Virus record (IMG/VR): IMGVR_UViG_647533160_000003
Source: a virus
Lineage: Duplodnaviria; Heunggongvirae; Uroviricota; Caudoviricetes
Strand: one strand, 5' to 3'
Length of the DNA: 64,000 nucleotides
How positions within the stretch are numbered: the stretch's first letter is position 1; each line of letters opens with the position of its first letter. Below, piece after piece: positions 2,754-48,093 of the stretch. The notes beneath the pieces were generated by a model. It was not told where the DNA came from. It was given only the letters and a program-made list of their open reading frames with translations, and did not search any database. The position numbers and the translations under genes are program-made.

Positions 2754-3854
2754 TCACACTGCGCGGAATGCGATCTCGCCAGGTATTACTTCGCCTTGCC
2801 AATACATTTGGGCAGCAACGCGATCTGCGAGGTCACGATAAATAGCCGTAAATTCGCTATCTGGACGACTAATAACGGTTGGTGTTCCGTTATCCAGATC
2901 TTCACGAAGAGAGATATGAAGTGGCATTTGGCCTAACAACTGCGTGTTGTATTTCTCGGCCAGTTTCTGTGCGCCACCGGTGCCAAAAATTGGCTCGTGA
3001 TGACCGCAGTTACTGCAAATATGCACACTCATGTTTTCGACGATACCCAGTACCGGCACTTCGACTTTTTCGAACATCACAATGCCTTTCTTCGCATCGA
3101 TCAGCGCGATGTCTTGCGGCGTAGTTACCACAACCGCACCAGTTACAGGAATGTTCTGCGCCAGCGTCAATTGAATATCACCAGTGCCCGGCGGCATATC
3201 GAGAACGAGATAGTCCAGATCAGGCCACAGTGTTTCCTGCAACATCTGCATCAGCGCCTTGCTGGCCATCGGTCCACGCCACACCATTGCATTGTCGTCG
3301 GTGACCAGATAACCAATAGAGTTGGTTGCCAGGCCATGAGACATAATCGGTGCCATGTGAGTACCGTCCGGTGAGGTTGGACGTTGGTTTTCCGCGCCCA
3401 GCATGGTTGGAATTGATGGACCGTAGATATCGGCATCCAAAATACCAACTTTCGCACCTTCAGCAGCCAACGCCAGTGCCAAGTTTACTGCTGTGGACGA
3501 TTTGCCTACACCGCCCTTGCCTGAGCTTACGGCGATAATATTCTTAACGCCATTAATGCCTGGTTGGTTTTTGACGCGCTTAAGCGTGGCAATGTTGTAC
3601 GACAGCTTCCAGTCAATAGCCTTTGCGCCAGTGATACGGAGCAGATCACCACTACATTGCTCTTTCAGGTCTTCAAAAGGCTTATTCCACACGAAAGGCA
3701 TGATTAGTTCGACATGCAGTGTGTCATCCATCAACGCAACATGGTGTAACGCTTTAAGCGTAGTCAGGTTGTGTTTCAGGGTTGGGTGCTGAAAATTAGC
3801 CAGCGTACCGGCTACCATTGCTCTCAGGGCATCCGGCGATTTGGACTCGCTCAT
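2754..3854 (-). CDS. apbC: Fe-S cluster carrier P-loop ATPase ApbC/Mrp
   Basis: 366-aa ORF; deviant Walker A 'SGKGGVGKS', conserved CxxC 'CSNCGHH', overall ApbC/Mrp family pattern; divergent from metG as in enterobacterial genomes. Confidence 0.9.
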   Translation of the reverse strand: MSESKSPDALRAMVAGTLANFQHPTLKHNLTTLKALHHVALMDDTLHVELIMPFVWNKPFEDLKEQCSGDLLRITGAKAIDWKLSYNIATLKRVKNQPGINGVKNIIAVSSGKGGVGKSSTAVNLALALAAEGAKVGILDADIYGPSIPTMLGAENQRPTSPDGTHMAPIMSHGLATNSIGYLVTDDNAMVWRGPMASKALMQMLQETLWPDLDYLVLDMPPGTGDIQLTLAQNIPVTGAVVVTTPQDIALIDAKKGIVMFEKVEVPVLGIVENMSVHICSNCGHHEPIFGTGGAQKLAEKYNTQLLGQMPLHISLREDLDNGTPTVISRPDSEFTAIYRDLADRVAAQMYWQGEVIPGEIAFRAV

Positions 3855-4011
3855 CCCGTCTCCTTTATTTTAATTTGCGCAATTGTCGCCTTGTAGTGTA
3901 CTCCAGCTACGACATTTAATCATTTATGAGAAATGCTGTTATCACATGGCAGACATAAGGCCATTTTGTTACTATCAAGCCCCTTTTCACTACAAAGAAG
4001 TAATGCCTACT

Positions 4012-7000
4012 ATGACCCAAGTCGCGAAGAAAATTCTGGTGACGTGCGCGCTGCCGTACGCTAACGGCTCAATCCACCTCGGCCATATGCTGGAGCACAT
4101 CCAGGCTGATGTCTGGGTTCGTTACCAGCGAATGCGCGGCCACGAGGTTAATTTCATCTGTGCCGACGATGCCCACGGTACGCCGATCATGCTGAAAGCA
4201 CAGCAGCTTGGTATCACACCGGAGCAGATGATTGGCGAAATGAGTCAGGAACACCAGACTGATTTCGCAGGCTTTAACATCAGCTATGACAACTATCACT
4301 CGACGCACAGCGAAGAGAACCGCCAGCTGTCTGAGCTTATCTATACTCGCCTGAAAGAGAACGGTTTTATTAAAAACCGCACCATCTCTCAGCTGTACGA
4401 TCCGGAAAAAGGCATGTTCCTGCCGGATCGTTTTGTAAAAGGCACCTGCCCGAAATGTAAAGCACCTGATCAATATGGCGATAACTGTGAAGTCTGCGGC
4501 GCAACATATAGCCCGACTGAATTGATCGAACCGAAATCGGTGGTTTCTGGCGCTACGCCGGTAATGCGTGATTCTGAACACTTCTTCTTTGATCTGCCCT
4601 CTTTCAGCGAAATGTTGCAGGCATGGACCCGCAGCGGCGCGTTGCAGGAGCAGGTGGCAAACAAAATGCAGGAGTGGTTTGAATCTGGTCTGCAACAGTG
4701 GGATATCTCCCGCGACGCACCTTACTTCGGTTTTGAAATTCCGAACGCGCCGGGTAAATATTTCTACGTCTGGCTGGACGCACCGATTGGCTATATGGGC
4801 TCTTTCAAGAATCTGTGTGATAAGCGCGGCGACAGCGTAAGCTTCGATGAATACTGGAAGAAAGATTCCACCGCCGAGCTGTATCACTTCATCGGTAAAG
4901 ATATCGTTTACTTCCACAGCCTGTTCTGGCCAGCAATGCTGGAAGGCAGCAACTTCCGCAAGCCGACCAACCTGTTTGTTCACGGCTATGTGACAGTGAA
5001 CGGCGCGAAGATGTCCAAGTCTCGCGGCACCTTTATTAAAGCCAGCACCTGGCTGAATCATTTTGACGCCGACAGCCTGCGCTACTACTACACCGCCAAA
5101 CTGTCTTCGCGCATTGATGATATCGATCTCAACCTGGAGGATTTCGTTCAGCGCGTGAATGCCGATATTGTTAACAAAGTGGTTAACCTGGCCTCCCGTA
5201 ATGCAGGCTTTATCAACAAGCGTTTTGACGGCGTGCTGGCAAGCGAACTGGCTGACCCGCAACTGTACAAAACCTTTACTGATGCCGCTGAAGTGATTGG
5301 CGAAGCATGGGAAAGCCGCGAATTTGGTAAAGCTATCCGTGAAATCATGGCATTGGCTGACCTGGCTAACCGCTATGTCGATGAACAGGCTCCGTGGGTG
5401 GTGGCGAAGCAGGAAGGTCGCGATGCAGATCTGCAGGCGATTTGCTCTATGGGCATTAACCTGTTCCGCGTGCTGATGACGTACCTGAAACCGGTACTGC
5501 CAAAACTGACTGAACGTGCAGAGGCATTCCTCAATACGGAACTGACCTGGGATGGTATCCAGCAACCGCTGTTGGGCCATAAAGTGAATCCGTTCAAAGC
5601 TCTGTATAACCGTATCGATATGAAGCAGGTTGAAGCACTGGTGGAAGCGTCTAAAGAAGAAGTCAAAGCCGCTGCCGCACCGGTAACTGGCCCGCTGGCA
5701 GACGATCCGATTCAGGAAACCATCACCTTTGACGACTTCGCCAAAGTTGACCTGCGCGTGGCACTGATTGAAAACGCGGAGTTTGTCGAAGGNNNNNNNN
5801 NNNNNNNNNNNNNNNNNNNNNNNNNNNNNNNNNNNNNNNNNNNNNNNNNNNNNNNNNNNNNNNNNNNNNNNNNNNNNNNNNNNNNNNNNNNNNNNNNNNN
5901 NNNNNNNNNNNNNNNNNNNNNNNNNNNNNNNNNNNNNNNNNNNNNNNNNNNNNNNNNNNNNNNNNNNNNNNNNNNNNNNNNNNNNNNNNNNNNNNNNNNN
6001 NNNNNNNNNNNNNNNNNNNNNNNNNNNNNNNNNNNNNNNNNNNNNNNNNNNNNNNNNNNNNNNNNNNNNNNNNNNNNNNNNNNNNNNNNNNNNNNNNNNN
6101 NNNNNNNNNNNNNNNNNNNNNNNNNNNNNNNNNNNNNNNNNNNNNNNNNNNNNNNNNNNNNNNNNNNNNNNNNNNNNNNNNNNNNNNNNNNNNNNNNNNN
6201 NNNNNNNNNNNNNNNNNNNNNNNNNNNNNNNNNNNNNNNNNNNNNNNNNNNNNNNNNNNNNNNNNNNNNNNNNNNNNNNNNNNNNNNNNNNNNNNNNNNN
6301 NNNNNNNNNNNNNNNNNNNNNNNNNNNNNNNNNNNNNNNNNNNNNNNNNNNNNNNNNNNNNNNNNNNNNNNNNNNNNNNNNNNNNNNNNNNNNNNNNNNN
6401 NNNNNNNNNNNNNNNNNNNNNNNNNNNNNNNNNNNNNNNNNNNNNNNNNNNNNNNNNNNNNNNNNNNNNNNNNNNNNNNNNNNNNNNNNNNNNNNNNNNN
6501 NNNNNNNNNNNNNNNNNNNNNNNNNNNNNNNNNNNNNNNNNNNNNNNNNNNNNNNNNNNNNNNNNNNNNNNNNNNNNNNNNNNNNNNNNNNNNNNNNNNN
6601 NNNNNNNNNNNNNNNNNNNNNNNNNNNNNNNNNNNNNNNNNNNNNNNNNNNNNNNNNNNNNNNNNNNNNNNNNNNNNNNNNNNNNNNNNNNNNNNNNNNN
6701 NNNGCTGTTGGGCCATAAAAGTGAATCCGTTCAAAGCTCTGTATAACCGTATCGATATGAAGCAGGTTGAAGCACTGGTGGAAGCGTCTAAAGAAGAAGT
6801 CAAAGCCGCTGCCGCACCGGTAACTGGCCCGCTGGCAGACGATCCGATTCAGGAAACCATCACCTTTGACGACTTCGCCAAAGTTGACCTGCGCGTGGCA
6901 CTGATTGAAAACGCGGAGTTTGTCGAAGGTTCTGACAAACTGCTGCGCCTGACACTGGATCTCGGCGGAGAAAAACGTAATGTCTTCTCAGGCATTCGTT

Positions 7001-7182
7001 CCGCTTATCCAGATCCACAGGCACTGATTGGTCGTCACACCATTATGGTGGCTAACCTGGCTCCGCGTAAGATGCGCTTCGGTATCTCTGAAGGCATGGT
7101 GATGGCTGCTGGCCCCGGCGGGAAAGATATCTTCCTGTTAAGCCCGGATGCCGGTGCTAAACCTGGCCACCAGGTTAAGTAA
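4012..7182 (+). CDS. metG: Methionyl-tRNA synthetase MetG, interrupted by assembly gap (N-terminal catalytic part 4012-5792; C-terminal tRNA-binding part 6704-7182)
   Basis: ATG at 4012 ([29 protein letters not shown], class I HIGH motif), 'KMSKS' at ~5010; C-terminal tRNA-binding domain after gap; gap plus duplicated flank makes true length and frame uncertain. Confidence 0.85.
5568..5792. repeat. Left copy of ~225-bp direct duplication flanking the N-gap
   Basis: Sequence gctgttgggccataaagtgaatccg...gagtttgtcgaagg is repeated at 6704-6929 with one extra A (ataaaagtg). Confidence 0.95.
5793..6703. other. Assembly gap (911 N) inside metG
   Basis: Contiguous run of n characters. Confidence 1.
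6704..6929. repeat. Right copy of duplication flanking the N-gap (1-nt indel relative to left copy)
   Basis: Direct comparison with 5568-5792. Confidence 0.95.
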
Positions 7183-7201
7183 TTAAACAACCTCTGTTCG
7201 C

Positions 7202-7229
7202 AATGCCCGGCAACACGCTGGGCATTTTC
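7202..7229 (+). terminator. Rho-independent terminator of metG
   Basis: Hairpin atgcccgg-caacacg-ctgggcat followed by TTTT, 20 nt after metG stop. Confidence 0.7.
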
Positions 7230-7266
7230 ATATAGACACAATCCCTCCTGATTTACACAAGCCCTA

Positions 7267-7279
7267 AAACAATTTGTTT
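7267..7279. promoter_or_regulatory. 13-bp palindrome AAACAA-N-TTGTTT (site 1)
   Basis: aaacaatttgttt. Confidence 0.6.
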
Positions 7280-7317
7280 TCTACCTTTTGTTGATTGAGA
7301 TAATAAGCCACATAAGA

Positions 7318-7330
7318 AAACAAATTGTTT
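7318..7330. promoter_or_regulatory. 13-bp palindrome AAACAA-N-TTGTTT (site 2), 14 nt upstream of ATG 7344, preceded by GATAAT
   Basis: aaacaaattgttt. Confidence 0.6.
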
Positions 7331-7343
7331 CGGAGTGGTTGAA

Positions 7344-7643
7344 ATGTTGAACATTACCCAAGCCTACCAGGTGGCATTGATCAGTTCATCTCATACATCA
7401 GAGGAAGATGCTCGCCGATTCATGATCGCAAGCAATGAACTGGATTGGGTTTCACAAATTGAGTACGGTTGCATTGTCCACGCCGGGTTACAGGACGATG
7501 ACTGGAAAGATAACTTGCGTCGATATGGTATATCCGAGGGCGCGATTTCGAACATTCAGAAGGTACTTGATGTAGGCTTCGACTCTGTACATTTCGATTG
7601 TGGCGCACCGGTCGTTGAAGGGCTTGAGTGCTGGCAATGGTAA
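7344..7643 (+). CDS. Hypothetical early protein
   Basis: ORF (track 7335, GTG) with GGAG RBS 8 nt before ATG 7344; preceded by conserved palindrome at 7318-7330. Confidence 0.55.
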   Translation: MLNITQAYQVALISSSHTSEEDARRFMIASNELDWVSQIEYGCIVHAGLQDDDWKDNLRRYGISEGAISNIQKVLDVGFDSVHFDCGAPVVEGLECWQW

Positions 7644-7679
7644 TCCGGCAATCGCTTCATACTAGATAACGGAGAATTT

Positions 7680-7865
7680 ATGCTTAAAGAAGACTCATAT
7701 CTACTAAAGGCGCTTGAAATGCGTGGCGTTGAACCTACAGTGAAAAACGCTCACGATATCTACCTTCAGTTTTCGACAGAGCTGAAACAGCTCATAAATA
7801 AATATGGAGTGAACGACTCCAGCGTCAAAGCCATGATAGATGATGAATTAGACCATCTCATCTAA
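7680..7865 (+). CDS. Hypothetical small protein (61 aa)
   Basis: ORF with RBS-like 'acggagaatttatg'; operon position after previous gene. Confidence 0.45.
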   Translation: MLKEDSYLLKALEMRGVEPTVKNAHDIYLQFSTELKQLINKYGVNDSSVKAMIDDELDHLI

Positions 7866-7959
7866 TCAAACCGTTGATAATGGCGGTCACAATTTGATTC
7901 TTTTCTATAAGAATCCGTTGATCGCCACTACTTCCCTTCCATACCCGCAATCACATCCT

Positions 7960-8760
7960 TAAATATCAATAATTTATAGTTGTTTATACAATCAAGAAAA
8001 CAACTGAATAACAGATCAACGAAACGTCAACGCTTTCACCTGATTTGGTCTAAAAAGTTGACGTTTTCACACATCACTTCTTATACCCGTAATCCCACGC
8101 AGCAGATAGCGCCACAGCGTCCAAATTTCACCACAGACGACTCAACACTACCAACAAAAACACACGCTCAAAATCGCTCCCGTTGCGTTACACAACCATA
8201 TAAACAACTTATTTCCAGGCATAACAAAACAACTAAATAACACACATGCCATTCCCAAAAACAACCAACCTCTTTATGGCAGGCTACCGAAAAGACCCAC
8301 CTCTTCTTCCCAGGCTACCGGACAACCAACCTAACTTTCACAGGCAATCCGAAAACATTCATACGCGCGATACTCACGACACGCCATTCCCCAAACAGCG
8401 AAGAAACACAGAACCACTGAACCCCCAACGAAGCCTGTAACCGCAAGGATTCTCTCAATCCCAAAAGACACGAAACAGAACAATCACGGGAAACGCCATT
8501 ACCCAATACACGAATAACTACAAAAGCCTTTCACGCACTCCAGACAAACACAATAACGAAAGGAATCGCCCACCTGCCATTACTCCATATACGGAGAAGA
8601 ACAATCACCAAAACGACGAGAACACCCCACAGAAGAACCACCGCAAAACGAACGAAACCATTTACACCGACAGAGAGAACAACACACCCAATTCACCAAC
8701 AGGAATAGTCGCCGTATAGAACGCTCTGGAAGGAGTGAGCATTAACGCCTATAGAGAGGT
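7960..8760 (+). other. Strand-asymmetric C+A-rich noncoding region with degenerate ~30-bp repeats
   Basis: Plus strand almost devoid of G and T over ~800 bp; repeated caggctaccg units near 8281-8342; ORFs here have non-protein-like composition. Confidence 0.6.
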
Positions 8761-8831
8761 TGAGACAGATAAAACACGAAGAAAACACAACATGTATAAC
8801 GAAGAAGCCAGGTATGTATAAGTGGGGAGGG

Positions 8832-8856
8832 AAGGAGGGGTGTCGCCTCCTTTTTC
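8832..8856 (+). terminator. Intrinsic terminator at end of CA-rich noncoding region
   Basis: aggagg-ggtgtcg-cctcct followed by TTTTT. Confidence 0.6.
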
Positions 8857-8939
8857 GTATTTATTCAACTCCTGATTTTATCCCCCGTAACACCCCTACG
8901 GTCAGCCTCCGGTCCATACAGGGAAAAGGCTGCATCCCG

Positions 8940-9055
8940 CTACAGAAACGGCTGGATTGCCTTCGGGGAACGGCTGGAGGTTTTCAGGGAAACGGTCGAG
9001 TTGCCTGTGTGGATTTCGGGAAAAGGTTCGATGCCGGTTCAGGAACGGTGGCGTA
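8940..9055. repeat. Iteron-like direct repeats GG(R)AACGG (5 copies, ~21-27 bp spacing)
   Basis: agaaacggctgga, gggaacggctgga, gggaaacggtcga, gggaaaaggttcga, aggaacggtggcg. Confidence 0.6.
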
Positions 9056-9387
9056 CCGGTATAGCGTGAGGGAGAGTTGCGGCTACCCACCTGTAATGTG
9101 CGGGAAGAAGAGAGGTGCTCACGTGCAGGCGGACTTACTTACCGCTGGATTCCCTCTGAATGCCCAGCTACAGCGTAATTGTGCCAGATAGCCAGCGGGT
9201 CACAATCGATTTCAGTAGGTTTTCGGGGAGAGGATTATTCTGCACACCAGCCACTTTCGGCCACTAAATCAGAATAATGTAAAAAGTGTACTCGGTACTG
9301 AACCTGAAAACTCACTGCTAAAACCACATTCACCGGAATAAAATCCTTTTTCGCTTATGTGTTATTACGATAATAACACCAATAAGA

Positions 9388-9400
9388 AAACATGTTGTTT
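9388..9400. promoter_or_regulatory. 13-bp palindrome family (site 3)
   Basis: aaacatgttgttt; preceded by cgataataacaccaataag. Confidence 0.55.
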
Positions 9401-9412
9401 AAGGATTGCTTT

Positions 9413-9496
9413 ATGTTTGCACATATCGACATCAACCAAATTAAGAAATTGACTCAAAAAGAGTCTGTGAGCTGGAAGGTTGGTCTTCCACTCTGA
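9413..9496 (+). CDS. Possible 27-aa leader peptide or small ORF downstream of conserved promoter/operator motif
   Basis: ATG 13 nt after palindrome 9388-9400; short; may instead be part of a frameshifted gene with 9511-9732. Confidence 0.25.
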   Translation: MFAHIDINQIKKLTQKESVSWKVGLPL

Positions 9497-9510
9497 TCAA
9501 TTCGCGGTGG

Positions 9511-9732
9511 GTGCTTGAGCTGATGACTCGTGATGATGCACCTGCTTTGATGATTTGCGACATGGGTGAAGATGCTGACTTTATGGATATGAGCGAATTT
9601 TGTGTGGACACATACAACCGCAGCCAGAAGTACTACTTCACATGCGATAGCGAGAATGACGTGATTTCTAAGGTCTATCTTCACCTTGTCCAGCATTGGG
9701 ACGTTCAGGAGTTTCTTGAAGTATTCGCGTAA
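9511..9732 (+). CDS. Hypothetical acidic small protein
   Basis: 73-aa ORF (GTG start in track; ATG at 9523). Confidence 0.45.
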   Translation: MLELMTRDDAPALMICDMGEDADFMDMSEFCVDTYNRSQKYYFTCDSENDVISKVYLHLVQHWDVQEFLEVFA

Positions 9733-9861
9733 CCTCAACCAAAGCCAGCAATGCTGGCTTAACTTCTCTGTGGCCGCAGGGAAGAACCTGCATATCGCTC
9801 ATGCGCCTGATCAATATGCTTTGTAGCCGTTTTCTTACTGCTATTATTTACGCCATTGAGA

Positions 9862-9874
9862 AAACAAGTTGTTT
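9862..9874. promoter_or_regulatory. 13-bp palindrome family (site 4)
   Basis: aaacaagttgttt. Confidence 0.6.
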
Positions 9875-9885
9875 ACGGAGTTGTG

Positions 9886-10197
9886 ATGAAAAAATCATTG
9901 GTTCTTGGTCTGGACAAAGACCAGAAGCGAAAAGAGAAGCCTGCGCTGGTTGCTCAATTAACTTTGCTGGACATCGTTGCCAATGGAACCTCTATTCGTC
10001 TGTTCCGTGAAACAGCGGTGTCTTTCGATAAAAACACCTTTACTCGTTATGTAATGAATGTTCGTCGCCAGCGTGGAAAAGGCTGGGTGGCATTTCAAAG
10101 AATGTGGCCGGAACATCAGCTCGAACTGGCTTTGATGGAAGTTAACCGCGTGGCCCAGCAAGAAATTCAGAGAGCATCAGTGATGGCAATAGCCTGA
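9886..10197 (+). CDS. Hypothetical early protein
   Basis: ATG 9886 with ACGGAG RBS, 12 nt after palindrome 9862-9874; followed by terminator. Confidence 0.55.
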   Translation: MKKSLVLGLDKDQKRKEKPALVAQLTLLDIVANGTSIRLFRETAVSFDKNTFTRYVMNVRRQRGKGWVAFQRMWPEHQLELALMEVNRVAQQEIQRASVMAIA

Positions 10198-10231
10198 TAA
10201 TGTGCAAGTGGTAATTAGTCGACAGTACGAC

Positions 10232-10260
10232 AGCCCCGCCATCCTTACGGGGCTTTTTTG
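10232..10260 (+). terminator. Rho-independent terminator
   Basis: agccccgcc-atcctta-cggggct + TTTTTT. Confidence 0.8.
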
Positions 10261-10323
10261 TATTGTAAGTACATACCTACGGCTATAAAATATAAAAATA
10301 ACCAAGACACTACGGAGAGTGAA

Positions 10324-10719
10324 ATGACCGTTAAACGCGAAAAACTGACAGTTGATGTTTACTATGCCTCTGAAACCGCCGAAGGTAAGAATGTGGCAAA
10401 AATCACCGTTGTTACGTACAACACCGAAACTGGTGCCGAAGTCCAGGCCAGTACGATCGTGCGTAAAGGTGATGCCTCCGGCGGCGAGTACGCGACTCAA
10501 TACCAGTCTATTTTCGATGCAACTGACCCGCTGCTGCTGAAAATCGAGAACTACTTCCGCCAGGTTGATGAAGAGGTGTTTGAAACCATGATGAATATGG
10601 TTAACACCGTATTCGCCTCCAGCCTGAATACCAACACTACCTGGATTGGTCAGTACGGCCTGCGCATTACCTCCGGCATTCCTGCTGACACCTTAATTCC
10701 TGAAAGCGTATTCGCTTAA
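10324..10719 (+). CDS. Hypothetical protein
   Basis: ATG 10324 with GGAGAG RBS; 131-aa ORF. Confidence 0.55.
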   Translation: MTVKREKLTVDVYYASETAEGKNVAKITVVTYNTETGAEVQASTIVRKGDASGGEYATQYQSIFDATDPLLLKIENYFRQVDEEVFETMMNMVNTVFASSLNTNTTWIGQYGLRITSGIPADTLIPESVFA

Positions 10720-10814
10720 TCCTCTTTGAATGGCGCGTAAACCGCGCCATTTCCTATGCCCGATAACAATTTGTTTTCTGCCTTTATCTCGCTGCGATAA
10801 TTACACCAACAAGA

Positions 10815-10827
10815 AAACAACATGTTT
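10815..10827. promoter_or_regulatory. 13-bp palindrome family (site 5)
   Basis: aaacaacatgttt; preceded by cgataattacaccaacaag. Confidence 0.55.
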
Positions 10828-10840
10828 ACGCAGTGAGGAT

Positions 10841-11128
10841 ATGCTCATGACTGATTTCACCATTACCCCTAAAGCACAAAATGTATTTCTTGAATCATGG
10901 CTGGACTTGCCGGAAACAGAACAGCAAGAAATGGATCATGTGGATTATGACGAGCAGGTAAGCACGCGATTCTTCCACTTTGAGGGATGCGTTTACGACA
11001 TTGCCGACTTCATGCGAGATGACCGCTTCCCTGAATGGCACGCAAGCTATCCACTAAACGCCTTCGCCATGCTGATGATCCGTGTGGATGATTCAGGGGA
11101 TACCATCGACATCGGTCTGCTCCACTGA
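10841..11128 (+). CDS. Hypothetical acidic protein
   Basis: ATG shortly after palindrome 10815-10827; ORF in-frame with track ORF 10730. Confidence 0.5.
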   Translation: MLMTDFTITPKAQNVFLESWLDLPETEQQEMDHVDYDEQVSTRFFHFEGCVYDIADFMRDDRFPEWHASYPLNAFAMLMIRVDDSGDTIDIGLLH

Positions 11129-11299
11129 AGAATAAGGTCACCAATGCTGGTGGCCTTAAATGACCATCCTGTTTCCCTCAGGCTAAAAACACCAACCTCT
11201 TACCTCCAGGCAACCGACAAACCCACCTGTTCCCGTCCGGCCACCGCAACTTTCCACTTTGACGCCTTATTCGTACAACGATAATTAACACCAACAAGA

Positions 11300-11312
11300 A
11301 AACAATTTGTTA
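11300..11312. promoter_or_regulatory. 13-bp palindrome family (site 6)
   Basis: aaacaatttgtta; preceded by cgataattaacaccaacaag. Confidence 0.55.
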
Positions 11313-11332
11313 TTTACGATAAGGAATTAATC

Positions 11333-11815
11333 ATGAATTTTATCGCTACTGTAAACGCACCCGCACATGGCAATATCGCTGTAACGTTCTCTGACATTGA
11401 AAAACGAGTACTTGGTGCATGGCGCGACAATGAGACGGTAGAACTGTCAGCACAAGAAAAATGCATTATTGCACGCGACATCATTGGCAATCGTCGTTAC
11501 TCGCGGGTATTTGAGAAAGCGTATGTGGTAAATTCTGGATTCGGAACGTTCGTCTTTCCGGTGCGCTCCGGGCGATTCTGCCAGTCCAAGCTGATTGAGT
11601 TCGCTACGCAGATTTCTGTCTGGATTAAAACTCAATCGTCGTTCAAATTTTCCGACGATGAAGCAGTATCGCAGGGGATGCGGATCGCCAACAATGCAAT
11701 TAAATGCAAAAACATTACGTATACCGCTGGCGTTGATACATGGAAACTGTTTTGCGCTAACTTTATGCTGAATGTATACGCAAGCAACCGCATCCACATC
11801 CTTGATGGCGTGTAA
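11333..11815 (+). CDS. Hypothetical protein (160 aa)
   Basis: ATG 21 nt after palindrome 11300-11312, AAGGA RBS; followed by hairpin 11825-11846. Confidence 0.55.
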   Translation: MNFIATVNAPAHGNIAVTFSDIEKRVLGAWRDNETVELSAQEKCIIARDIIGNRRYSRVFEKAYVVNSGFGTFVFPVRSGRFCQSKLIEFATQISVWIKTQSSFKFSDDEAVSQGMRIANNAIKCKNITYTAGVDTWKLFCANFMLNVYASNRIHILDGV

Positions 11816-11824
11816 CTGAGAAGA

Positions 11825-11846
11825 GGGCCAGAAACGGCCCTTTCTC
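11825..11846 (+). terminator. Terminator hairpin after early gene cluster
   Basis: gggccagaaacggccc + TTTCTCT. Confidence 0.55.
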
Positions 11847-11869
11847 TATAGCCACCAGCTGCCGCAGGG

Positions 11870-11950
11870 AAATTTTCAGAAACGGCGAGGAACGTATTCA
11901 TGAGCCGACGGGAAACGGCTAGGATTTTTTCGGGAAACGGCTACATTTGC
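11870..11950. repeat. Second cluster of GGGAAACGGCT iteron-like repeats
   Basis: cagaaacggcgagg, gggaaacggctagg, gggaaacggctaca. Confidence 0.6.
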
Positions 11951-12067
11951 CTTTATGTAGAAAAACATCGGGAAGTTGGTTGAATCCAACCAGCGGTTGT
12001 CGGACAGGCGAGCGGGGAAATCATGATGACTTTCGTCGCCTGAGACATCCAGATTTCTTTCGTAGCG

Positions 12068-12109
12068 TAATCACATACGTGATTAAGTGGTGTGATTATG
12101 TGAAAAATC
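12068..12109. promoter_or_regulatory. Pair of inverted repeats with GTGATT/AATCAC half-sites (operator-like)
   Basis: aatcacatacgtgatt and gtgattatgtgaaaaatcac. Confidence 0.45.
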
Positions 12110-12429
12110 ACGCGCACATAATACGCGAGCGGATACGGAACAAAACAAAATGCCGATCCGCGCCGACAAATAAACGCGGATCACATAGCAAGACTAAAAG
12201 CCAATGATTAACTATGCGCTATAGCGCAATATAACGCGTTTTAAGCGCGTTAATGCGTTAAGTAATGGGTATGTACTGGCAAGGATATAAAAGCGCGTCT
12301 ATGGCGTTATTTTGGCGCTTATTGTTATGTTGTTGGAGTGAGTTAAAGACAATAAAAAACGCGCCAATGATGGCGCGTTATGGTGGAAGTATTGGAAACG
12401 AAAAAAGCGCCCATAGTGGGCGCTCGATT

Positions 12430-12660
12430 TTATTTATGTAAACTGATTTCAAATCCCATTTCTACAAACGCTTTTAACATTAAAAAAATATCAGCGTCGT
12501 TCACGTCTGCTTTTTTTCGCTCCTGGTCGCTCAATAAGTCAATTTTGCGCGTCGTTTCATCTATAAGCTCGACCGCGCGCCCAGCGTAACCAGCGATCCC
12601 AGCGATGCGATTAACATAATATTCATTATGGACGTTAACGCCAGCGATAAGAACAAACAT
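12430..12660 (-). CDS. Hypothetical small protein (76 aa)
   Basis: Minus-strand ORF in AT-rich cassette; flanked by repeated hairpin. Confidence 0.4.
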   Translation of the reverse strand: MFVLIAGVNVHNEYYVNRIAGIAGYAGRAVELIDETTRKIDLLSDQERKKADVNDADIFLMLKAFVEMGFEISLHK

Positions 12661-12681
12661 GATTAAGCTCCTTAAAAAAAA

Positions 12682-12930
12682 TTAAATAGAATTTTGAAGT
12701 TTTCCGATTAATGCGCTTAAACGTAAGTATTCACGTTTGCGCTTGCAATCTCGCTTGCTGTTAAGCAAATCAGAAAACGTAAAATTTAATTGGTCGCGTT
12801 GCGCGATCAAATCATCGATTAATTCCAGTTTATAAGCGCGATACTTTGCGCGATATTCTGCGCGGATCTTGTCATAGCTGACCATCTTTAAAGCTCCTTT
12901 AAAGCGCCCACTATGGGCGCTTAATTCCAT
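12682..12930 (-). CDS. Hypothetical small protein (82 aa), basic, possibly nucleic-acid binding
   Basis: Minus-strand ORF; Lys/Arg-rich; flanked by repeated hairpins. Confidence 0.4.
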   Translation of the reverse strand: MELSAHSGRFKGALKMVSYDKIRAEYRAKYRAYKLELIDDLIAQRDQLNFTFSDLLNSKRDCKRKREYLRLSALIGKLQNSI

Positions 12931-12933
12931 TAA

Positions 12934-13584
12934 TTACGCTTTGAAAGCGTCAGCTAGATAATTGTAGAAATCATTTTTAATGAAGCGATATTGCTGAGTA
13001 CCAGCTTTTGCGCTCCCAGCTCCTTTGACTTTCTCAACAAGTCCGAGACGTTCGCAAAGATTGATCAACTGGTTGGCTTGAGTATAGCCAGCGTCCAATT
13101 TAATTTCGCACGCTTTTTTAGCTTCATTCATTAAATCGAAAACAGCGCCATTAGTGAACGTGTCGATCTCGTCGTTAATCATATCGATTAAAGCGAATAC
13201 ACGAGATCCTGACATATCAGCGACGGAATAAACGCATTTACCAGCTTTAATGGATTTAACCAGATAAACCAGTTTTTCCAGTGAATAACTATTAGTCATT
13301 GCATCACGGAAAAATACTTCTGGCGCTTGTTTGCTTGCTTTAATCGCATAGTAGAAAACAGAGCATAATTTTTCGTCTTCTACTGCGTTTACGACGTTGT
13401 TGATGAAGTAAGCAAGTTTAGTGGTCGCAGCTTGCATATTTGCTTTGTCTGCTTTAGTGTGCGTACCATTTTTATAATGTTCGTTATATGTTTGAGTTGC
13501 CAGATCTGCTTTTTCGCGCAGCTCGTCGGATACAATGGAAGCAGCTTCAATGATGGTTTTTTTAGAAATGATAATGTTAGCCAT
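12934..13584 (-). CDS. Hypothetical protein (216 aa)
   Basis: Minus-strand ORF with AT-rich upstream region 13590-13840. Confidence 0.5.
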   Translation of the reverse strand: MANIIISKKTIIEAASIVSDELREKADLATQTYNEHYKNGTHTKADKANMQAATTKLAYFINNVVNAVEDEKLCSVFYYAIKASKQAPEVFFRDAMTNSYSLEKLVYLVKSIKAGKCVYSVADMSGSRVFALIDMINDEIDTFTNGAVFDLMNEAKKACEIKLDAGYTQANQLINLCERLGLVEKVKGAGSAKAGTQQYRFIKNDFYNYLADAFKA

Positions 13585-13881: not shown

Positions 13882-14403
13882 TTAAAACGGAAGGATTCGT
13901 TCAACCCAATCGAAGAAAATAAGTATTTTTCTACCGTCTTCCAACTTAAGTGTGACTAGACAGGCGTCAACGCCATCTGACTTTCCCTCAATTTCGCGAC
14001 CGTCTGCCATGTAGACCCTTATAGATTTGCCGTTTTGGTAAGCCTGACGACATATCTTAAAAAAGTCACGACGTGATGGCTGATTAACCATCTGTTCATT
14101 GTTTAGCGTTAGTCGACCTGTGAATGAAGTGTCAACCTCTTCTATGCCCGACTCAATTGTGCTAATGCGCTCAAGAGGGAGCCTTATACGATTTGTGTTG
14201 CTAAGCGGATCTGGTGTGAGGTTCAGCTTATTTCTTGCGCTCAATAGCCCGTAGACATACATGCAAAACACTTGGCCGTCTTCGAGAGTGACTCTTACAG
14301 GAAATTGAGCACTCCGCCAGAAGAGCAAGGTGCGTTCAGCATGTTCGTAGTTTCGCGGCCATACTTCAGCCGGTATGCCGTAGGTGATGTCCAATGTTCT
14401 CAT
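13882..14403 (-). CDS. Hypothetical protein (173 aa)
   Basis: Minus-strand ORF overlapping upstream gene by 4 nt (operon). Confidence 0.5.
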   Translation of the reverse strand: MRTLDITYGIPAEVWPRNYEHAERTLLFWRSAQFPVRVTLEDGQVFCMYVYGLLSARNKLNLTPDPLSNTNRIRLPLERISTIESGIEEVDTSFTGRLTLNNEQMVNQPSRRDFFKICRQAYQNGKSIRVYMADGREIEGKSDGVDACLVTLKLEDGRKILIFFDWVERILPF

Positions 14404-21457: not shown

Positions 21458-21495
21458 TTAATAAGACATGCCCAGACCTAATTAAACACCCCAGA

Positions 21496-21533
21496 AAACA
21501 AATTGGTTAGCATATGCAGTAAACAAGTTGTTT
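21496..21533. promoter_or_regulatory. Two 13-bp palindrome-family sites (7, 8) upstream of terminase small subunit gene
   Basis: aaacaaattggtt and aaacaagttgttt. Confidence 0.55.
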
Positions 21534-43935: not shown

Positions 43936-46900
43936 ATGTGGTACAGGGAAGGTACTATCACATTTACACAGGGTAGTAATACTCTGGTTGGGGTTGGGAC
44001 AGCCTGGAACGTAACAGCTAATGGTGTGTTGCCGGGGATGATCGTCATTGGCCCCGACAATAAGCTGTATGAGATCAAGCGCGTAACAAGCGATACGAAC
44101 ATTGTTCTCTCAGAACCTTATACCGGTGAAACTCAGTCTGAAGTTCCGTGCCGAATCATTACTACCTATGAAGGCGACTTAACACAGTTTAGCGCGCGCT
44201 TTACCGCGCTAATGTCGCGTATGTCGGCTGATTCCAAGTCCATGCGTAGTTGGTTGACTGCTCTGGATGAGGTGACAATCGAGCGTGAAGACGGTACAGA
44301 AGTGACCGTTAAGCCGCTGATGCAGATCGTCAACGAGCACAACGAAAACGTTGAGTGGTATAAAAATAACACTGACGCGATTGATGCCGCTGGTGACAAA
44401 GCTCGTGAGGCGGCGGCCAGTGCTGCCGCAGCAGCAGAAAGCGCCAATACCGCTGGAGAAAAAGCATCTCAAGCGTCTCAAAGTGCATCCGCTGCGGCAT
44501 CCTCACAAAGTGCCGCAAGTGCGAGTGCAACTGCTGCGAAAAAATCTGAAACGAACGCAGAATCAGCATATCTAGCGGCAGCAGAATCAGCGTCTGTAGC
44601 GTCGACCAAAGCATCGGAGGCAGCAACATCTGCGTCCAGTGCCTCTGCATCTAAGGATGCAGCCAAAGCATCAGAGACTAACGCTTCATCGAGTGCAAAC
44701 GCGGCTGCATCATTTGCAACAGAAGCTGAAAATTCGTCTAAGGCAGCAAAAGCGTCAGAGACAAACGCAAAAGCATCTGAAACGGCAGCCGGGCAGAGTG
44801 CATCGTCTGCAAACAGTTCGAAATCTGCGGCAGAAGCGTCAGCAAGCGCAGCCTCAGCAAGTGCGGATAGAGCTTCATCAAGTGCAACTGCGGCAGGAAA
44901 ATCTGCGGAAAGCGCGTCGTCGTCAGCGACAACAGCTACCGCAAAAGCGACTGAGGCGACGAATCAGGCTACAGCCGCTAAAAATTCAGCATCGGCAGCA
45001 AAATCCTCTGAAACAAATGCAAAGGCTTCTGAAGATAATGCCGCTTCCTCTAAAGAGGCAGCTGCTGAATCTGCAAGTTCTGCGTCTGCATCAGCCACCT
45101 CGGCATCCGCTTCAAAAGATGAGGCGACCAAGCAGGCATCAGCTGCGAAGGGGAGTGCTTCAACGGCATCCACGAAAGCAACAGAGGCGGCAGGCAGTGC
45201 GACGGCTGCATCTCAGAGCAAAGCTGCTGCTGAATCCGCTGCGACCCGTGCAGAAGCTGCCGCTGATCGTGCTGAAGAGATTGCCGGTGCCGTTGCGATG
45301 GAAGACGCAAGCCTTACCACCAAAGGTGTTGTGAAACTTAGCAGTGCTGTCGACAGCACCAGTGAATCGCTGGCCGCAACGCCAAAAGCAGTTAAAGCAG
45401 CCAATGACAATGCGAATAGCAGGGTGCCATCTAACCGAAAAGTTAACGGTAAAGCACTGACTGCGGATATCACATTAACGCCGAAAGATATTGGTACTTT
45501 AAATTCAGTAACGATGTCTTTCTCTGGCGGGGCTGGGTGGTTCAAACTGGCTACGGTTACCATGCCACAAGCGAGTTCCATCGTTTACATCGCATTGATT
45601 GGTGGCGCTGGTTACAACGTCGGCTCCCCACATCAGGCAGGCATTTCAGAACTGGTTCTACGAGCAGGCAATGGAAACCCCAAAGGGATTACCGGTGCTT
45701 TGTGGAAGCGGACAGCCGTCGGATTAACGAATTTCGCCTGGATCAACACATCCGGCGATACATATGATATTTACGTTGAGATTGGCAATTATGCGACTAG
45801 TGTAAATATCCATTGGGATTGTACTGCAAATGCGACAGTTTCTATTTATACATCGCCAACATATTCAGCGAGTAAGCCTTCCAGCGTTACCGATGGTGTT
45901 GTTTATACGATGTATAGCACACATCAGAAACCGACGCCGTTAGATATTGGAGCACTGCCAACAACCGGAGGAACAGTTTCAGGTCCGTTGTCTGTTACTG
46001 GTGGGATCACCGGAACATTAAATGGTAATGCAAGTACAGCAACGAAATTGCAGACGGCAAGATCTATCGGTGGAGTTGGTTTCGACGGTTCTGCAAATAT
46101 CAACCTTCCAGGTGTAAATACTACGGGTAATCAGAACACCACTGGTAATGCTGCAACTGCTACAAAACTTCAGACGGCAAGAACTATCGGCGGCGTGAGC
46201 TTTGATGGTACTGCGAATATTAATTTGCCAGGTGTTAATACGACTGGTAATCAGAATACAACGGGCAACGCGGCTACTGCTACGAAGTTGCAGACTGCAC
46301 GTACTATCAATGGGGTGTCGTTTGACGGCTCGGCAAATATTTCCTTGTCGCCAGCAAATATAGGTTGCCCGGCATCTCCTACTGGTTGGTTAACTACAGG
46401 AAGTAATGGCGGAGCAATAACAACAGCACAGTTAGTGACGTTATTGCAAAATAATGGAGCATTTAACACAAAGTCATGGATTGCTCGATGTGCGTGGGCC
46501 TATGCCAATAGTGCAACCATACCAAACAGTGAAACTGGTTGTGGCGTTATTCCATTGGCAGGAGCTGTTATAGAGGTATTTAATAACGGTAGTAGCTCAA
46601 ACAATTATACGATCCGTATAACAACGGCCACAACGACGAGTGTCTCTGGTGCTCTCACTAATGCGGAGTTTATCTATGTATTTAATGGCACAGATTATTC
46701 TCCGGGATGGCGAAGAGTATATAACACGAAAAACAAACCAACAGCCTCTGATGTCGGTGCATTACCTCTTACCGGTGGTACATTATCTGGAGGTTTGACA
46801 TCTTCTGGCGAGATCATTTCAAAATATGCAAATGGTTTCCGCATTGCTTACGGTAGCTTTGGGTTCTTTATCCGTAATGATGGATCGAACACATATTTCA

Positions 46901-48093
46901 TGCTAACAGCATCAGGAGACACATTAGGTTCATGGAACGGTTTGCGACCTATTACAATTAATAATACCAGCGGTGCGGTATCAATTGGTAATGGACTAAA
47001 TGTGACTGGTGGCGTAAATGGTAGTTTGAACGGTAATGCTTCAACAGCTACGAAGTTGCAAACAGCGAGAAACATCAATGGTGTTAAGTTTGATGGCTCA
47101 GGCGATATCAACATTAATACACTGGTATCTCGTGGCCGAGTTACGGCATTAAGCGGCTCTACTCAAGGCACTGCTGGCATTCAAATGTACGAGGCGTACA
47201 ACAATAGCTACCCGACCACGTATGGCAACGTATTGCACATGAAAGGTGCGAGTGCTGCTGGTGAGGGCGAGTTGCTTATTGGCTGGAGTGGTACGAGCGG
47301 TGCACATGCGCCAGTTTTCATTCGCTCACGAAGAGATACCACAGATGCGGCATGGTCAGCGTGGGCGCAGCTATATACTGCTAAGGATTCAATCCCTGGT
47401 GTGAATACAACCGGTAATCAGAATACTACTGGTAATGCCGCAACAGCCACAAAATTGCAGACAGCAAGGAAAATTGCTGGTGTGGCGTTTGATGGCTCTG
47501 CCGATATTACTTTGACTGCGGCTAACCTTAATGCTTATACGAAAACAGAGGTAACAAACCTTCTAAGTTCCTATGCAAGCAGATCATCACTGACAGGCTA
47601 TAGTGGCAACCTGGATATTATTGCTGAAACACTGGTTGTCAAATCAGGCGGTAGTGGAGGGTTTGCTATATGGGATATTGGCACAACTACTAGCGGTGCC
47701 AATATGTACATTGATCCAAACCCTGGTATCAATACAGTTTGGCGTTCAACATCTTCAAGGCGCTATAAAAAGGATATTGAAACATTACAAGATCGATATG
47801 CTGATGAACTTTTGTCATTAAGACCTGTTTGGTATCGTTCAATTTGTCGAGGTGACCGAAAGGATTGGGGGTATTACGGCCTTATTGCTGAAGAGGTTGG
47901 TGAGATTGCCCCGCAATATGTCCATTGGCGTGAACCAACAAATAATGATTCTCCAGAAGATATTTCCTCAAATGGTATGGTCGCTGAAGGGGTGATGTAT
48001 GAGCGTTTGGTTGTACCACTCATTCATCATATTCAGCAATTGACCAAAAGGGTTGAGGAGCTTGAAACGAAGTTAAATTCACCTAAAGAATAA
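43936..48093 (+). CDS. Tail fibre protein with Ala/Ser-rich repeats, ~40-aa fibre repeats and C-terminal intramolecular-chaperone (peptidase S74-like) domain
   Basis: N-terminal 'SASxAAxxSExNA' repeats; repeated 'GNAATATKLQTAR.I.GV.FDGSANI'; C-terminal 'YKKDIETLQDRYADELLSLRPVWYRS...GLIAEEVGEIAPQYV' typical of autocleaving fibre chaperone domains. Confidence 0.85.
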   Translation: MWYREGTITFTQGSNTLVGVGTAWNVTANGVLPGMIVIGPDNKLYEIKRVTSDTNIVLSEPYTGETQSEVPCRIITTYEGDLTQFSARFTALMSRMSADSKSMRSWLTALDEVTIEREDGTEVTVKPLMQIVNEHNENVEWYKNNTDAIDAAGDKAREAAASAAAAAESANTAGEKASQASQSASAAASSQSAASASATAAKKSETNAESAYLAAAESASVASTKASEAATSASSASASKDAAKASETNASSSANAAASFATEAENSSKAAKASETNAKASETAAGQSASSANSSKSAAEASASAASASADRASSSATAAGKSAESASSSATTATAKATEATNQATAAKNSASAAKSSETNAKASEDNAASSKEAAAESASSASASATSASASKDEATKQASAAKGSASTASTKATEAAGSATAASQSKAAAESAATRAEAAADRAEEIAGAVAMEDASLTTKGVVKLSSAVDSTSESLAATPKAVKAANDNANSRVPSNRKVNGKALTADITLTPKDIGTLNSVTMSFSGGAGWFKLATVTMPQASSIVYIALIGGAGYNVGSPHQAGISELVLRAGNGNPKGITGALWKRTAVGLTNFAWINTSGDTYDIYVEIGNYATSVNIHWDCTANATVSIYTSPTYSASKPSSVTDGVVYTMYSTHQKPTPLDIGALPTTGGTVSGPLSVTGGITGTLNGNASTATKLQTARSIGGVGFDGSANINLPGVNTTGNQNTTGNAATATKLQTARTIGGVSFDGTANINLPGVNTTGNQNTTGNAATATKLQTARTINGVSFDGSANISLSPANIGCPASPTGWLTTGSNGGAITTAQLVTLLQNNGAFNTKSWIARCAWAYANSATIPNSETGCGVIPLAGAVIEVFNNGSSSNNYTIRITTATTTSVSGALTNAEFIYVFNGTDYSPGWRRVYNTKNKPTASDVGALPLTGGTLSGGLTSSGEIISKYANGFRIAYGSFGFFIRNDGSNTYFMLTASGDTLGSWNGLRPITINNTSGAVSIGNGLNVTGGVNGSLNGNASTATKLQTARNINGVKFDGSGDININTLVSRGRVTALSGSTQGTAGIQMYEAYNNSYPTTYGNVLHMKGASAAGEGELLIGWSGTSGAHAPVFIRSRRDTTDAAWSAWAQLYTAKDSIPGVNTTGNQNTTGNAATATKLQTARKIAGVAFDGSADITLTAANLNAYTKTEVTNLLSSYASRSSLTGYSGNLDIIAETLVVKSGGSGGFAIWDIGTTTSGANMYIDPNPGINTVWRSTSSRRYKKDIETLQDRYADELLSLRPVWYRSICRGDRKDWGYYGLIAEEVGEIAPQYVHWREPTNNDSPEDISSNGMVAEGVMYERLVVPLIHHIQQLTKRVEELETKLNSPKE
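46023..46346 (+). repeat. Three tandem ~120-bp repeats inside tail fibre gene (further diverged copies near 47020 and 47400)
   Basis: Direct repetition of ggtaatgc..acagcaacgaaattgcagacggcaaga.. Confidence 0.8.

Follow-up and report, generated by a model that had tools for sequence, protein, structure and literature searches.

Two conserved direct-repeat arrays of SSU5-like phage-plasmids as putative protein-binding sites with a possible centromere-like role

The DNA analyzed here (hereafter, the window) is the 64,000-nucleotide stretch of the IMG/VR virus record IMGVR_UViG_647533160_000003 which, from ~7.25 kb onward, represents an SSU5-like phage-plasmid as judged by sequence matches. The window is most similar to Escherichia phage Cyrano (96%), CMS-2020a and PhiR41_1; Klebsiella phage-plasmids and Salmonella phage SSU5 come next. 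The metG and apbC genes at the left end of the window are part of the phage-plasmid itself. Two arrays of short direct repeats (clusters 1 and 2, Table 1) are located in non-coding DNA of this element. The repeats are real, non-random, conserved and syntenic, and their depiction in a preliminary description of the window as iteron-like direct repeats with regular spacing, located outside coding sequence in a plasmid or phage, is borne out. Some details had to be amended: the count of three copies in cluster 2 is correct, whereas cluster 1, for which five copies were reported at 8945-9052, contains six, at 8921-9049.

Exact matches to GGGAAACGG(C/T) are present in only three of the copies, the others being off by one or two positions; motif-like sequences also occur in the loop of the terminator hairpin at 11829 (CAGAAACGG) and, in degenerate form, at 11867 (GGGAAATTT). 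The TRF program detected a period of 22 at 8945-8995. From 80 distinct repeat units, the consensus (A/C)GGGAAACGG(C) was obtained, with weak information outside the core, such that only ~10 of each 22 bp are conserved; the core is often preceded by a T-tract, is asymmetric and, as a duplex, can be written TTTCGGGAAACGGC. With at most one mismatch allowed, GGGAAACGGY has 16 matches in the window compared to 5.9 expected, a number that none of 100 shuffles reached. The degenerate core (C/G)(A/G)G(A/G)AA(A/C)GG yields 11 matches on both strands of the 64 kb, 10 of them within the two clusters and all 10 of these on the plus strand, and same-strand clusters of at least three core copies appeared in none of the 200 dinucleotide-preserving shuffles of the window.

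With regard to coding capacity, PGAP leaves ~1.6 kb around cluster 1 unannotated in a 98%-identical plasmid and ~1.4 kb in pHCM2 and in the Enterobacter and Cronobacter plasmids, and the open reading frames (ORFs) called over cluster 1 by other annotators disagree from genome to genome. A coding repeat is ruled out by these conflicting annotations, by the 22-nucleotide period and by the indels between lineages in the cluster 1 region (9, 11 and 22 nucleotides), which are not all multiples of three.

Table 1. Features of the window related to the repeat arrays and their candidate binding proteins
Feature	Position	Strand	Remarks
Promoter-like element	8062-8091	+	TTGACG-N17-TTATAC; always accompanies cluster 1
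A/C-rich, ORF-free DNA	8062-8800	+	~700 nucleotides leading to cluster 1, which it always accompanies
Terminator-like hairpin	8829-8856	+	GGAGG-GGTGTCG-CCTCC, then TTTTT; ~65 nucleotides upstream of cluster 1
Cluster 1	8921-9049	+	Six same-strand copies of a ~10-nucleotide core, spacing 22-22-22-31-22: 8921 GGGAAAAGGC, 8943 CAGAAACGGC, 8965 GGGGAACGGC, 8987 GGGAAACGGT, 9018 GGGAAAAGGT, 9040 CAGGAACGGT
Terminator hairpin of the 160-aa gene	11826-11850	+	GGGCC-AGAAAC-GGCCC, then TTTCTC; directly upstream of cluster 2
Cluster 2	11877-11941	+	Three copies, spacing 33-22: 11877 CAGAAACGGC, 11910 GGGAAACGGC, 11932 GGGAAACGGC
Four tandem terminator-like hairpins	12425-12405, 12379-12358, 12183-12154, 12127-12111	-	Span 12111-12425
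216-aa protein, phrog_1513	12934-13584	-	Candidate binder, co-conserved with the arrays
FljA-family gene	13882-14403	-	Pfam Flag1_repress (PF03614, E 2e-68); candidate binder of RNA or single-stranded nucleic acid
ParF-like Walker ParA	52285-52953	+	Pfam AAA_31/MipZ/CbiA; nearest solved relative, ParF of TP228
ParA partner, 119 aa	52953-53312	+	Candidate DNA binder; basic tail, ribbon-helix-helix-like pattern
Palindrome AGAAAACAAnTTGTTT	7267-7330, 9385-9400, 9859-9874, 10764-10827, 11297-11312, 21493-21533, 52234-52249, 56261-56276		

The preliminary description made its proposal depend on conservation of the repeats in relatives, and the repeats are indeed conserved: E. coli, Moellerella and every other lineage examined have both arrays at the same two syntenic positions. 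They were found in elements from E. coli, Salmonella (SSU5, pHCM2), Enterobacter, Cronobacter and Klebsiella, and in the Moellerella plasmid. Among the plasmids in PLSDB, 711 contain the cluster 1 region, including those from Klebsiella, Escherichia, Enterobacter, Salmonella, Citrobacter, Cronobacter and other hosts, and a scan of IMG/VR for GGGAAACGG-N13-GGGAAACGG, that is, two cores 22 bp apart, retrieved 66 loci, 63 of which belong to this element. A complete 110.5-kb relative contains these two clusters and no others. At all loci compared, the arrays are co-stranded, and cluster 1 is located 1.5-4.2 kb upstream of cluster 2, with a variable complement of small genes in between. When 8 lineages were aligned, the core columns showed no variation, in contrast to the spacers. 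The spacing of cluster 1 is identical in SSU5, pHCM2, Cronobacter, Enterobacter, Cyrano and many IMG/VR contigs, and that of cluster 2 is kept at 33/34-22 in relatives belonging to the shallow lineages; across all lineages, the copy number ranges from 2 to 6. The arrays are still present in a Klebsiella lineage with only 51% identity in a neighboring protein, and the divergent Klebsiella lineage and Moellerella (Morganellaceae) share the same core in 2-4 copies with a spacing of 10, 23-25, 28, 34, 37 or 44. The earlier notion of a spacing close to two helical turns is accordingly valid for the shallow lineages (22/31/33-34) but not for these two (10-44). Two decayed derivatives, Cronobacter pCsaCS931a (51.6 kb) and E. 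albertii p3RM15115 (62 kb), have lost the genes from terminase to tail and keep both arrays, together with the FljA-like gene, parA with the gene for its ribbon-helix-helix (RHH) partner, and the replicon. Few non-coding features of the family are as conserved as the arrays, whose core is unchanged from Enterobacteriaceae to Morganellaceae, and the two arrays probably constitute one conserved cis-acting element of SSU5-like phage-plasmids.

The transcriptional setting of the two arrays is similar. The A/C-rich stretch ahead of cluster 1 (A 40%, C 30%, GC skew -0.5, AT skew +0.5) contains no ORF and shows no 3-nucleotide periodicity; along with the promoter-like element, it is also found in SSU5, in the divergent Klebsiella lineage and in Moellerella, and its possible roles are those of a conserved, rut-like transcript that is not translated, or of an insulator of transcription. 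The hairpin that follows lies within the best-conserved 87 nucleotides of the region (8817-8903); its sequence is conserved, and only the E. coli lineage shows a clear hairpin with a T-run. The hairpin ahead of cluster 2 has a loop that resembles the repeat core and a stem that differs between lineages (GGGCC/GGCCC vs GGGGC/GCCCC) with pairing kept. The four minus-strand hairpins end the converging minus-strand operon short of cluster 2, and SSU5-type lineages likewise have a converging gene after cluster 1. Both arrays are located at the 3' ends of transcription units and, given the flanking terminator-like hairpins and converging genes, both appear to be protected from transcription and neither is located at a promoter. 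In the RNA-seq data for the Cyrano lysogen (PMC9928086, supplement), CYRAN_104, the ORF that overlies cluster 1, does not exceed background in any of the ten columns, small genes that neighbor CYRAN_104 rise in some conditions, and the FljA-like gene is expressed. Analysis with RNAalifold of 17 (cluster 1) and 10 (cluster 2) non-redundant sequences on both strands detected no conserved RNA structure across the arrays and kept the terminator hairpins only, including the helix upstream of cluster 2. Within cluster 2, a weak hairpin (AGCCG-ACGGGAAA-CGGCT, then T6) is possible at 11903-11920. A scan of positions 7000-13000 against Rfam, judged by E-value, returned nothing relevant, and a known or structured RNA family was rejected as a candidate in the absence of an Rfam match and of a conserved fold over the arrays.

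Binding of multiple copies of a protein at the repeats, as proposed in the preliminary description, appears to be the most economical reading of the arrays. Each array would consist of several same-orientation copies of an asymmetric recognition word of ~10 bp, and several molecules of a single element-encoded, sequence-specific protein would load side by side on the duplex, building a nucleoprotein complex at the two transcription-shielded sites. We infer, each separately, that the arrays most likely act as double-stranded DNA (dsDNA), which protein binds them, and that the outcome is partition; the best single role that we can tentatively propose for such dsDNA binding-site arrays is that of a centromere-like site for partition, on which the ParF-like ParA and its RHH partner would act in trans from ~40 kb, a possibility that we entertain with low confidence. 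The partner is 91-100% identical across the SSU5, Klebsiella and E. coli elements, and its segments IKSRT.S.EDE and RSDV.RAA are invariant even at 32% overall identity; no match to it was found in Pfam or PDB, and the RHH fold is predicted from the sequence pattern only. The putative DNA-reading strand of the partner shows no change across the evolutionary range over which the repeat core is constant. Neither a repeat array nor a copy of the core was found near the par operon, upstream of parA or downstream of the partner gene, and because no repeat array adjoins this operon, the centromere of the ParF-like system must lie elsewhere. Several observations are in line with action of the arrays as dsDNA, namely their non-promoter or convergent position, insulation from transcription, silence of cluster 1 in the lysogen, absence of RNA structure, a spacing near whole helical turns in the shallow lineages (22/31/33-34), and retention of both arrays with par and rep in the virion-less derivatives pCsaCS931a and p3RM15115.

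There are, however, several points to be set against the centromere-like role. The two derivatives each represent a single deletion event and carry little weight. Type Ib centromeres normally overlap the par promoter, whereas the arrays are not located there, and the only conserved element upstream of parA is the palindrome AGAAAACAAnTTGTTT, which would be a more natural RHH operator. The spacing of 10-44 nucleotides and the 2-4 copies in the deep lineages seem to fit independent sites better than a phased segrosome, and the asymmetric core is less typical of an RHH dimer. Furthermore, all copies are on the strand transcribed by the flanking genes, and the conserved promoter with the long untranslated stretch ahead of cluster 1 is left unexplained by a DNA model. 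Co-variation of binder and motif was considered as a discriminator and was of no use, given the conservation of the core, the RHH reading strand and the FljA-like gene throughout the lineages.

Among the alternatives, the closest contender, which we regard as possible and slightly less likely than the centromere-like role, is that the arrays function as RNA or single-strand sites, where the cores of 9-10 nucleotides would be linear binding sites for the FljA-like protein. This protein is predicted by modeling to consist of two tandem Sm/Hfq-like domains, a fold that reads short single-stranded motifs; FljA-type regulators block translation of the fliC mRNA (PMC2652032), and the FljA-family gene is found near the arrays, 2 kb downstream, in every lineage including Moellerella. 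Cluster 1 would then be the tail of an A/C-rich untranslated RNA and cluster 2 the 3' untranslated region (UTR) of the small-gene operon, and binding of the FljA-like protein would destabilize or silence the transcripts, or else the array RNA would act as a sponge that titrates the protein. The location of all copies on one strand, the short asymmetric core, the lack of a structure requirement, the flexible spacing in deep lineages and the conserved upstream promoter-like element are all compatible with this possibility. The background level of cluster 1 in the lysogen RNA-seq, despite expression of the FljA-like gene, and the terminator-like hairpins that precede both arrays argue against it, as do the absence of the motif from all phage 5' UTRs in the window and the fact that the FljA-like protein already has a job at host fliC, the known target of the family. 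Nor are the arrays located, as an FljA-type translational operator would be, in a 5' leader; they lie behind terminator hairpins at 3' ends. As for a direct resemblance to the target, the E. coli fliC leader contains TGAGCCGACGGG followed by TGGAAAC, the window contains TGAGCCGACGGG followed by AAAC at 11901, and the Salmonella fliC leader contains ACGGTGAGAAACCG; the word GGAAAC is common to the arrays and the leader. The 12-nucleotide identity with the E. coli K-12 leader is confined to one repeat unit (11901-11923) in the E. coli lineage only, falls largely in a spacer that differs in other lineages, and is unremarkable given that shuffled windows share on average 2 eleven-mers with the leader; moreover, the invariant 3' GG of the core is missing from fliC leaders. 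The match could thus reflect chance or host mimicry, and as an argument, the similarity is real but statistically weak. A more specific version, in which the arrays and the A/C-rich transcript form a multi-site RNA module (a sponge or decay tag) that is read by the Hfq-like FljA family, which would be a hitherto unrecognized class of RNA-binding phage regulators, and controls early genes or the lysis-lysogeny decision, appears rather doubtful; such a module may also mimic the host fliC leader. A separate observation on this family is that P0125, a chromosomal FljA-like gene, resides in a decayed phage-plasmid fragment rather than in a flagellin locus.

The remaining alternatives keep the arrays as DNA. 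In the preliminary description, the primary suggestion was that of iterons, typically tandem units of ~17-22 bp, and the arrays are similar to these in comprising same-orientation repeats at ~22-bp spacing on a plasmid-borne element, such that they could belong to the RepA replicon of the plasmid, as its iterons or as incA-like sites for copy control. This we consider highly improbable, and the corresponding origin assignment does not survive: the arrays are neither at nor flanking a rep gene, RepA being encoded ~34 kb from cluster 1 with iterons of its own. In Cyrano, RepA is CYRAN_63 (60.6-61.7 kb), with the arrays at 95.2 and 98.9 kb; in the E. fergusonii plasmid NZ_CP079892.1 (98% identical), repA spans the record start and has at least 8 iterons GTATGCTGTCAGCGGT(AA) on its two sides, unrelated in sequence to GGGAAACGG. 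In this RepFIB-like layout, repA with the GTATGCTGTCAGCGGT iterons is the true plasmid replicon of the family and, because the true RepA iterons lie elsewhere, the arrays should not be annotated as a plasmid oriV. The same core is found in plasmids typed as rep_cluster_488, IncFIB, rep_cluster_763 and rep_cluster_2469, with no co-variation with Rep type. The cumulative GC skew has its minimum and maximum at repA only, without a turning point at the arrays, and neither an AT-rich unwinding element adjoining the arrays nor, on reading the sequence, a set of DnaA boxes beside them was seen; the GC fraction is 0.54-0.575 around cluster 1 and 0.47-0.50 across cluster 2. The same lack of unwinding element, DnaA boxes and skew signal at the GC-rich arrays counts against a lytic replication origin, in which the arrays would be iterons for a phage initiator of the element's own replisome (DnaB-like helicase, DnaE, RNase H, ligase and UvsW-like helicase), with initiation activated or primed by the upstream promoter and untranslated transcript. 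The iteron-like organization in two clusters with 22-bp spacing in most lineages, the retention of the arrays and the phage replication machinery in all lineages whatever the plasmid replicon, and the adjoining operon of the UvsW-like helicase speak for such an origin, and the order of promoter, untranslated transcript and repeats recalls the transcription-activated origins of lambda, ColE1 and T4. However, no initiator gene was found: the phrog_1641 and phrog_5125 genes between the arrays are absent in Moellerella, a model of the 160-aa protein shows no known fold, and the 249-aa protein encoded upstream of the DnaB-like helicase has no nearby repeats. With the terminators insulating the arrays from transcription and the irregular spacing in deep lineages, we deem a lytic origin unlikely. 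A link to transcription, with the arrays as a DNA roadblock, terminator-enhancer or insulator bracketing the early small-gene cassette, or as distal operators of a phage regulator, seems a little less likely still: both arrays directly follow terminator-type hairpins, and between them is a variable set of small genes, each with its own promoter/operator unit, but the next promoter is 280-400 bp away, or the array is in convergent intergenic DNA without a promoter, and the genome-wide operator of the element is a different motif. A pac or cos site was also considered and is unlikely, with the terminase genes 12 kb away and the SSU5 record starting near terS.

Other candidate binders were considered as well. 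The genes for the 160-aa (phrog_1641) and 113-aa (phrog_5125) proteins between the arrays are confined to this phage group and are not required for the arrays, because Moellerella lacks both and keeps the arrays. Co-conserved with the arrays in every lineage are ParA with its partner, the FljA-family protein, phrog_1513, and the UvsW-like helicase and a ParB-N pair adjoining the terminase genes. Searches of Pfam, PHROG and PDB sequences with the neighboring proteins returned "unknown function" only.

The genome-wide motif is the palindrome AGAAAACAAnTTGTTT(TCT), also written AGAAAACAAGTTGTTT, which occurs 17 times compared to 0.4 expected. It is located just after a GATAAT -10-like hexamer, 5-40 nucleotides before start codons, and precedes small early genes, terS, the gene for the DnaB-like helicase, and parA; at parA, the divergent Klebsiella lineage has kept it and Moellerella has kept half of it. 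The palindrome resembles a phage-wide operator or a 5'-UTR element. Two additional repeat families are present near the arrays and also in SSU5: units of ~30 bp, ACCAACCTCTT..CAGGCTACCG, in 3 + 3 copies at 8259-8350 and 11158-11246, and GCCATTACCC..ACGGAGAAGAACA, in 3 copies at 8383-8604. A 120-bp tandem repeat (46035-46341; 2.6 copies, 73% matches) belongs to the large tail-fibre-like ORF at 43936-48093. Between the ParA partner gene and the genes for the 249-aa and DnaB-like proteins, the segment 53318-55314 encodes a DUF2971 protein and a 398-aa protein, whereas the E. fergusonii relative has a single opposite-strand 352-aa gene at this place; the segment resembles a slot for variable cargo, perhaps defence genes. 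At the left end of the window (2754-7182), apbC (mrp) and metG are neighbors on the E. coli chromosome and represent a host fragment captured by the phage-plasmid. The run of Ns in metG (~5.8-6.7 kb) is an assembly gap, as indicated by the same 70 codons repeated on both sides of it.

SSU5-like phage-plasmids are common in clinical Klebsiella, E. coli, Salmonella and Enterobacter and carry resistance genes, and their cis-acting maintenance and lytic sites have so far remained essentially unmapped. No description of the arrays or of an Sm fold for FljA was found in the literature examined. If the arrays are a centromere, they would provide a handle for incompatibility-based curing and for the study of a ParF/ParG-type system that uses a distant site; if they serve an Sm-like FljA protein as RNA sites, a new type of phage post-transcriptional switch would be at hand; and if they are a lytic origin, they would mark the place where phage-mode replication starts.

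A comparison with known systems brings out both the likenesses and the differences. RHH centromeres organized in two clusters, parC1/parC2 of pB171 par2, along with parH of TP228 with ParF/ParG and parC of R1, resemble the arrays in that short direct-repeat clusters, two of them and ~1.5-4 kb apart in our case, are located in non-coding DNA of an element that encodes a ParF-like Walker ATPase and a small, basic-tailed, RHH-like partner. The arrays differ from these centromeres in being ~40 kb from the par operon, outside its promoter, which holds another palindrome, in having a 22-bp period and a 10-bp core compared to units of 4-11 bp, and in the irregular spacing in deep lineages. With RepFIB/P1-type iterons, the arrays share same-orientation repeats at ~22-bp spacing in two sets that flank genes, but unlike such iterons, they are not beside repA, have no unwinding element or DnaA boxes, differ from the true iterons of the element and are constant whatever the replicon type. 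The lambda ori and SPP1 oriL/oriR similarly contain G/A-rich repeats with T/A tracts at ~22-bp spacing, and those of SPP1 form two separate sets on one phage genome; the arrays are neither in nor beside an initiator gene, have no adjacent AT-rich region, and their units are not individually palindromic. The fliC 5' leader, the target of FljA in flagellar phase variation of Salmonella and E. coli, shares with the arrays the word G(G/A)GAAAC next to CGG, with the 12-nucleotide E. coli identity in one unit, and an FljA-family protein is encoded beside the arrays; these, however, are outside a 5' UTR, have no ribosome-binding site nearby and contain 3-6 copies of the motif, the leaders have no counterpart of the 3' GG of the core, and transcription of the arrays is putative. 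Sequestering RNAs of the CsrB/RsmZ type also contain many one-strand copies of a short motif in a non-coding stretch with its own promoter-like element, but the array motifs are not in conserved hairpin loops, the array RNA is not abundant in the lysogen, and in the E. coli lineage, a hairpin with a T-run intervenes between promoter and array. As repeated protein-binding sites on a plasmid or phage, the arrays would belong to a known kind of element.
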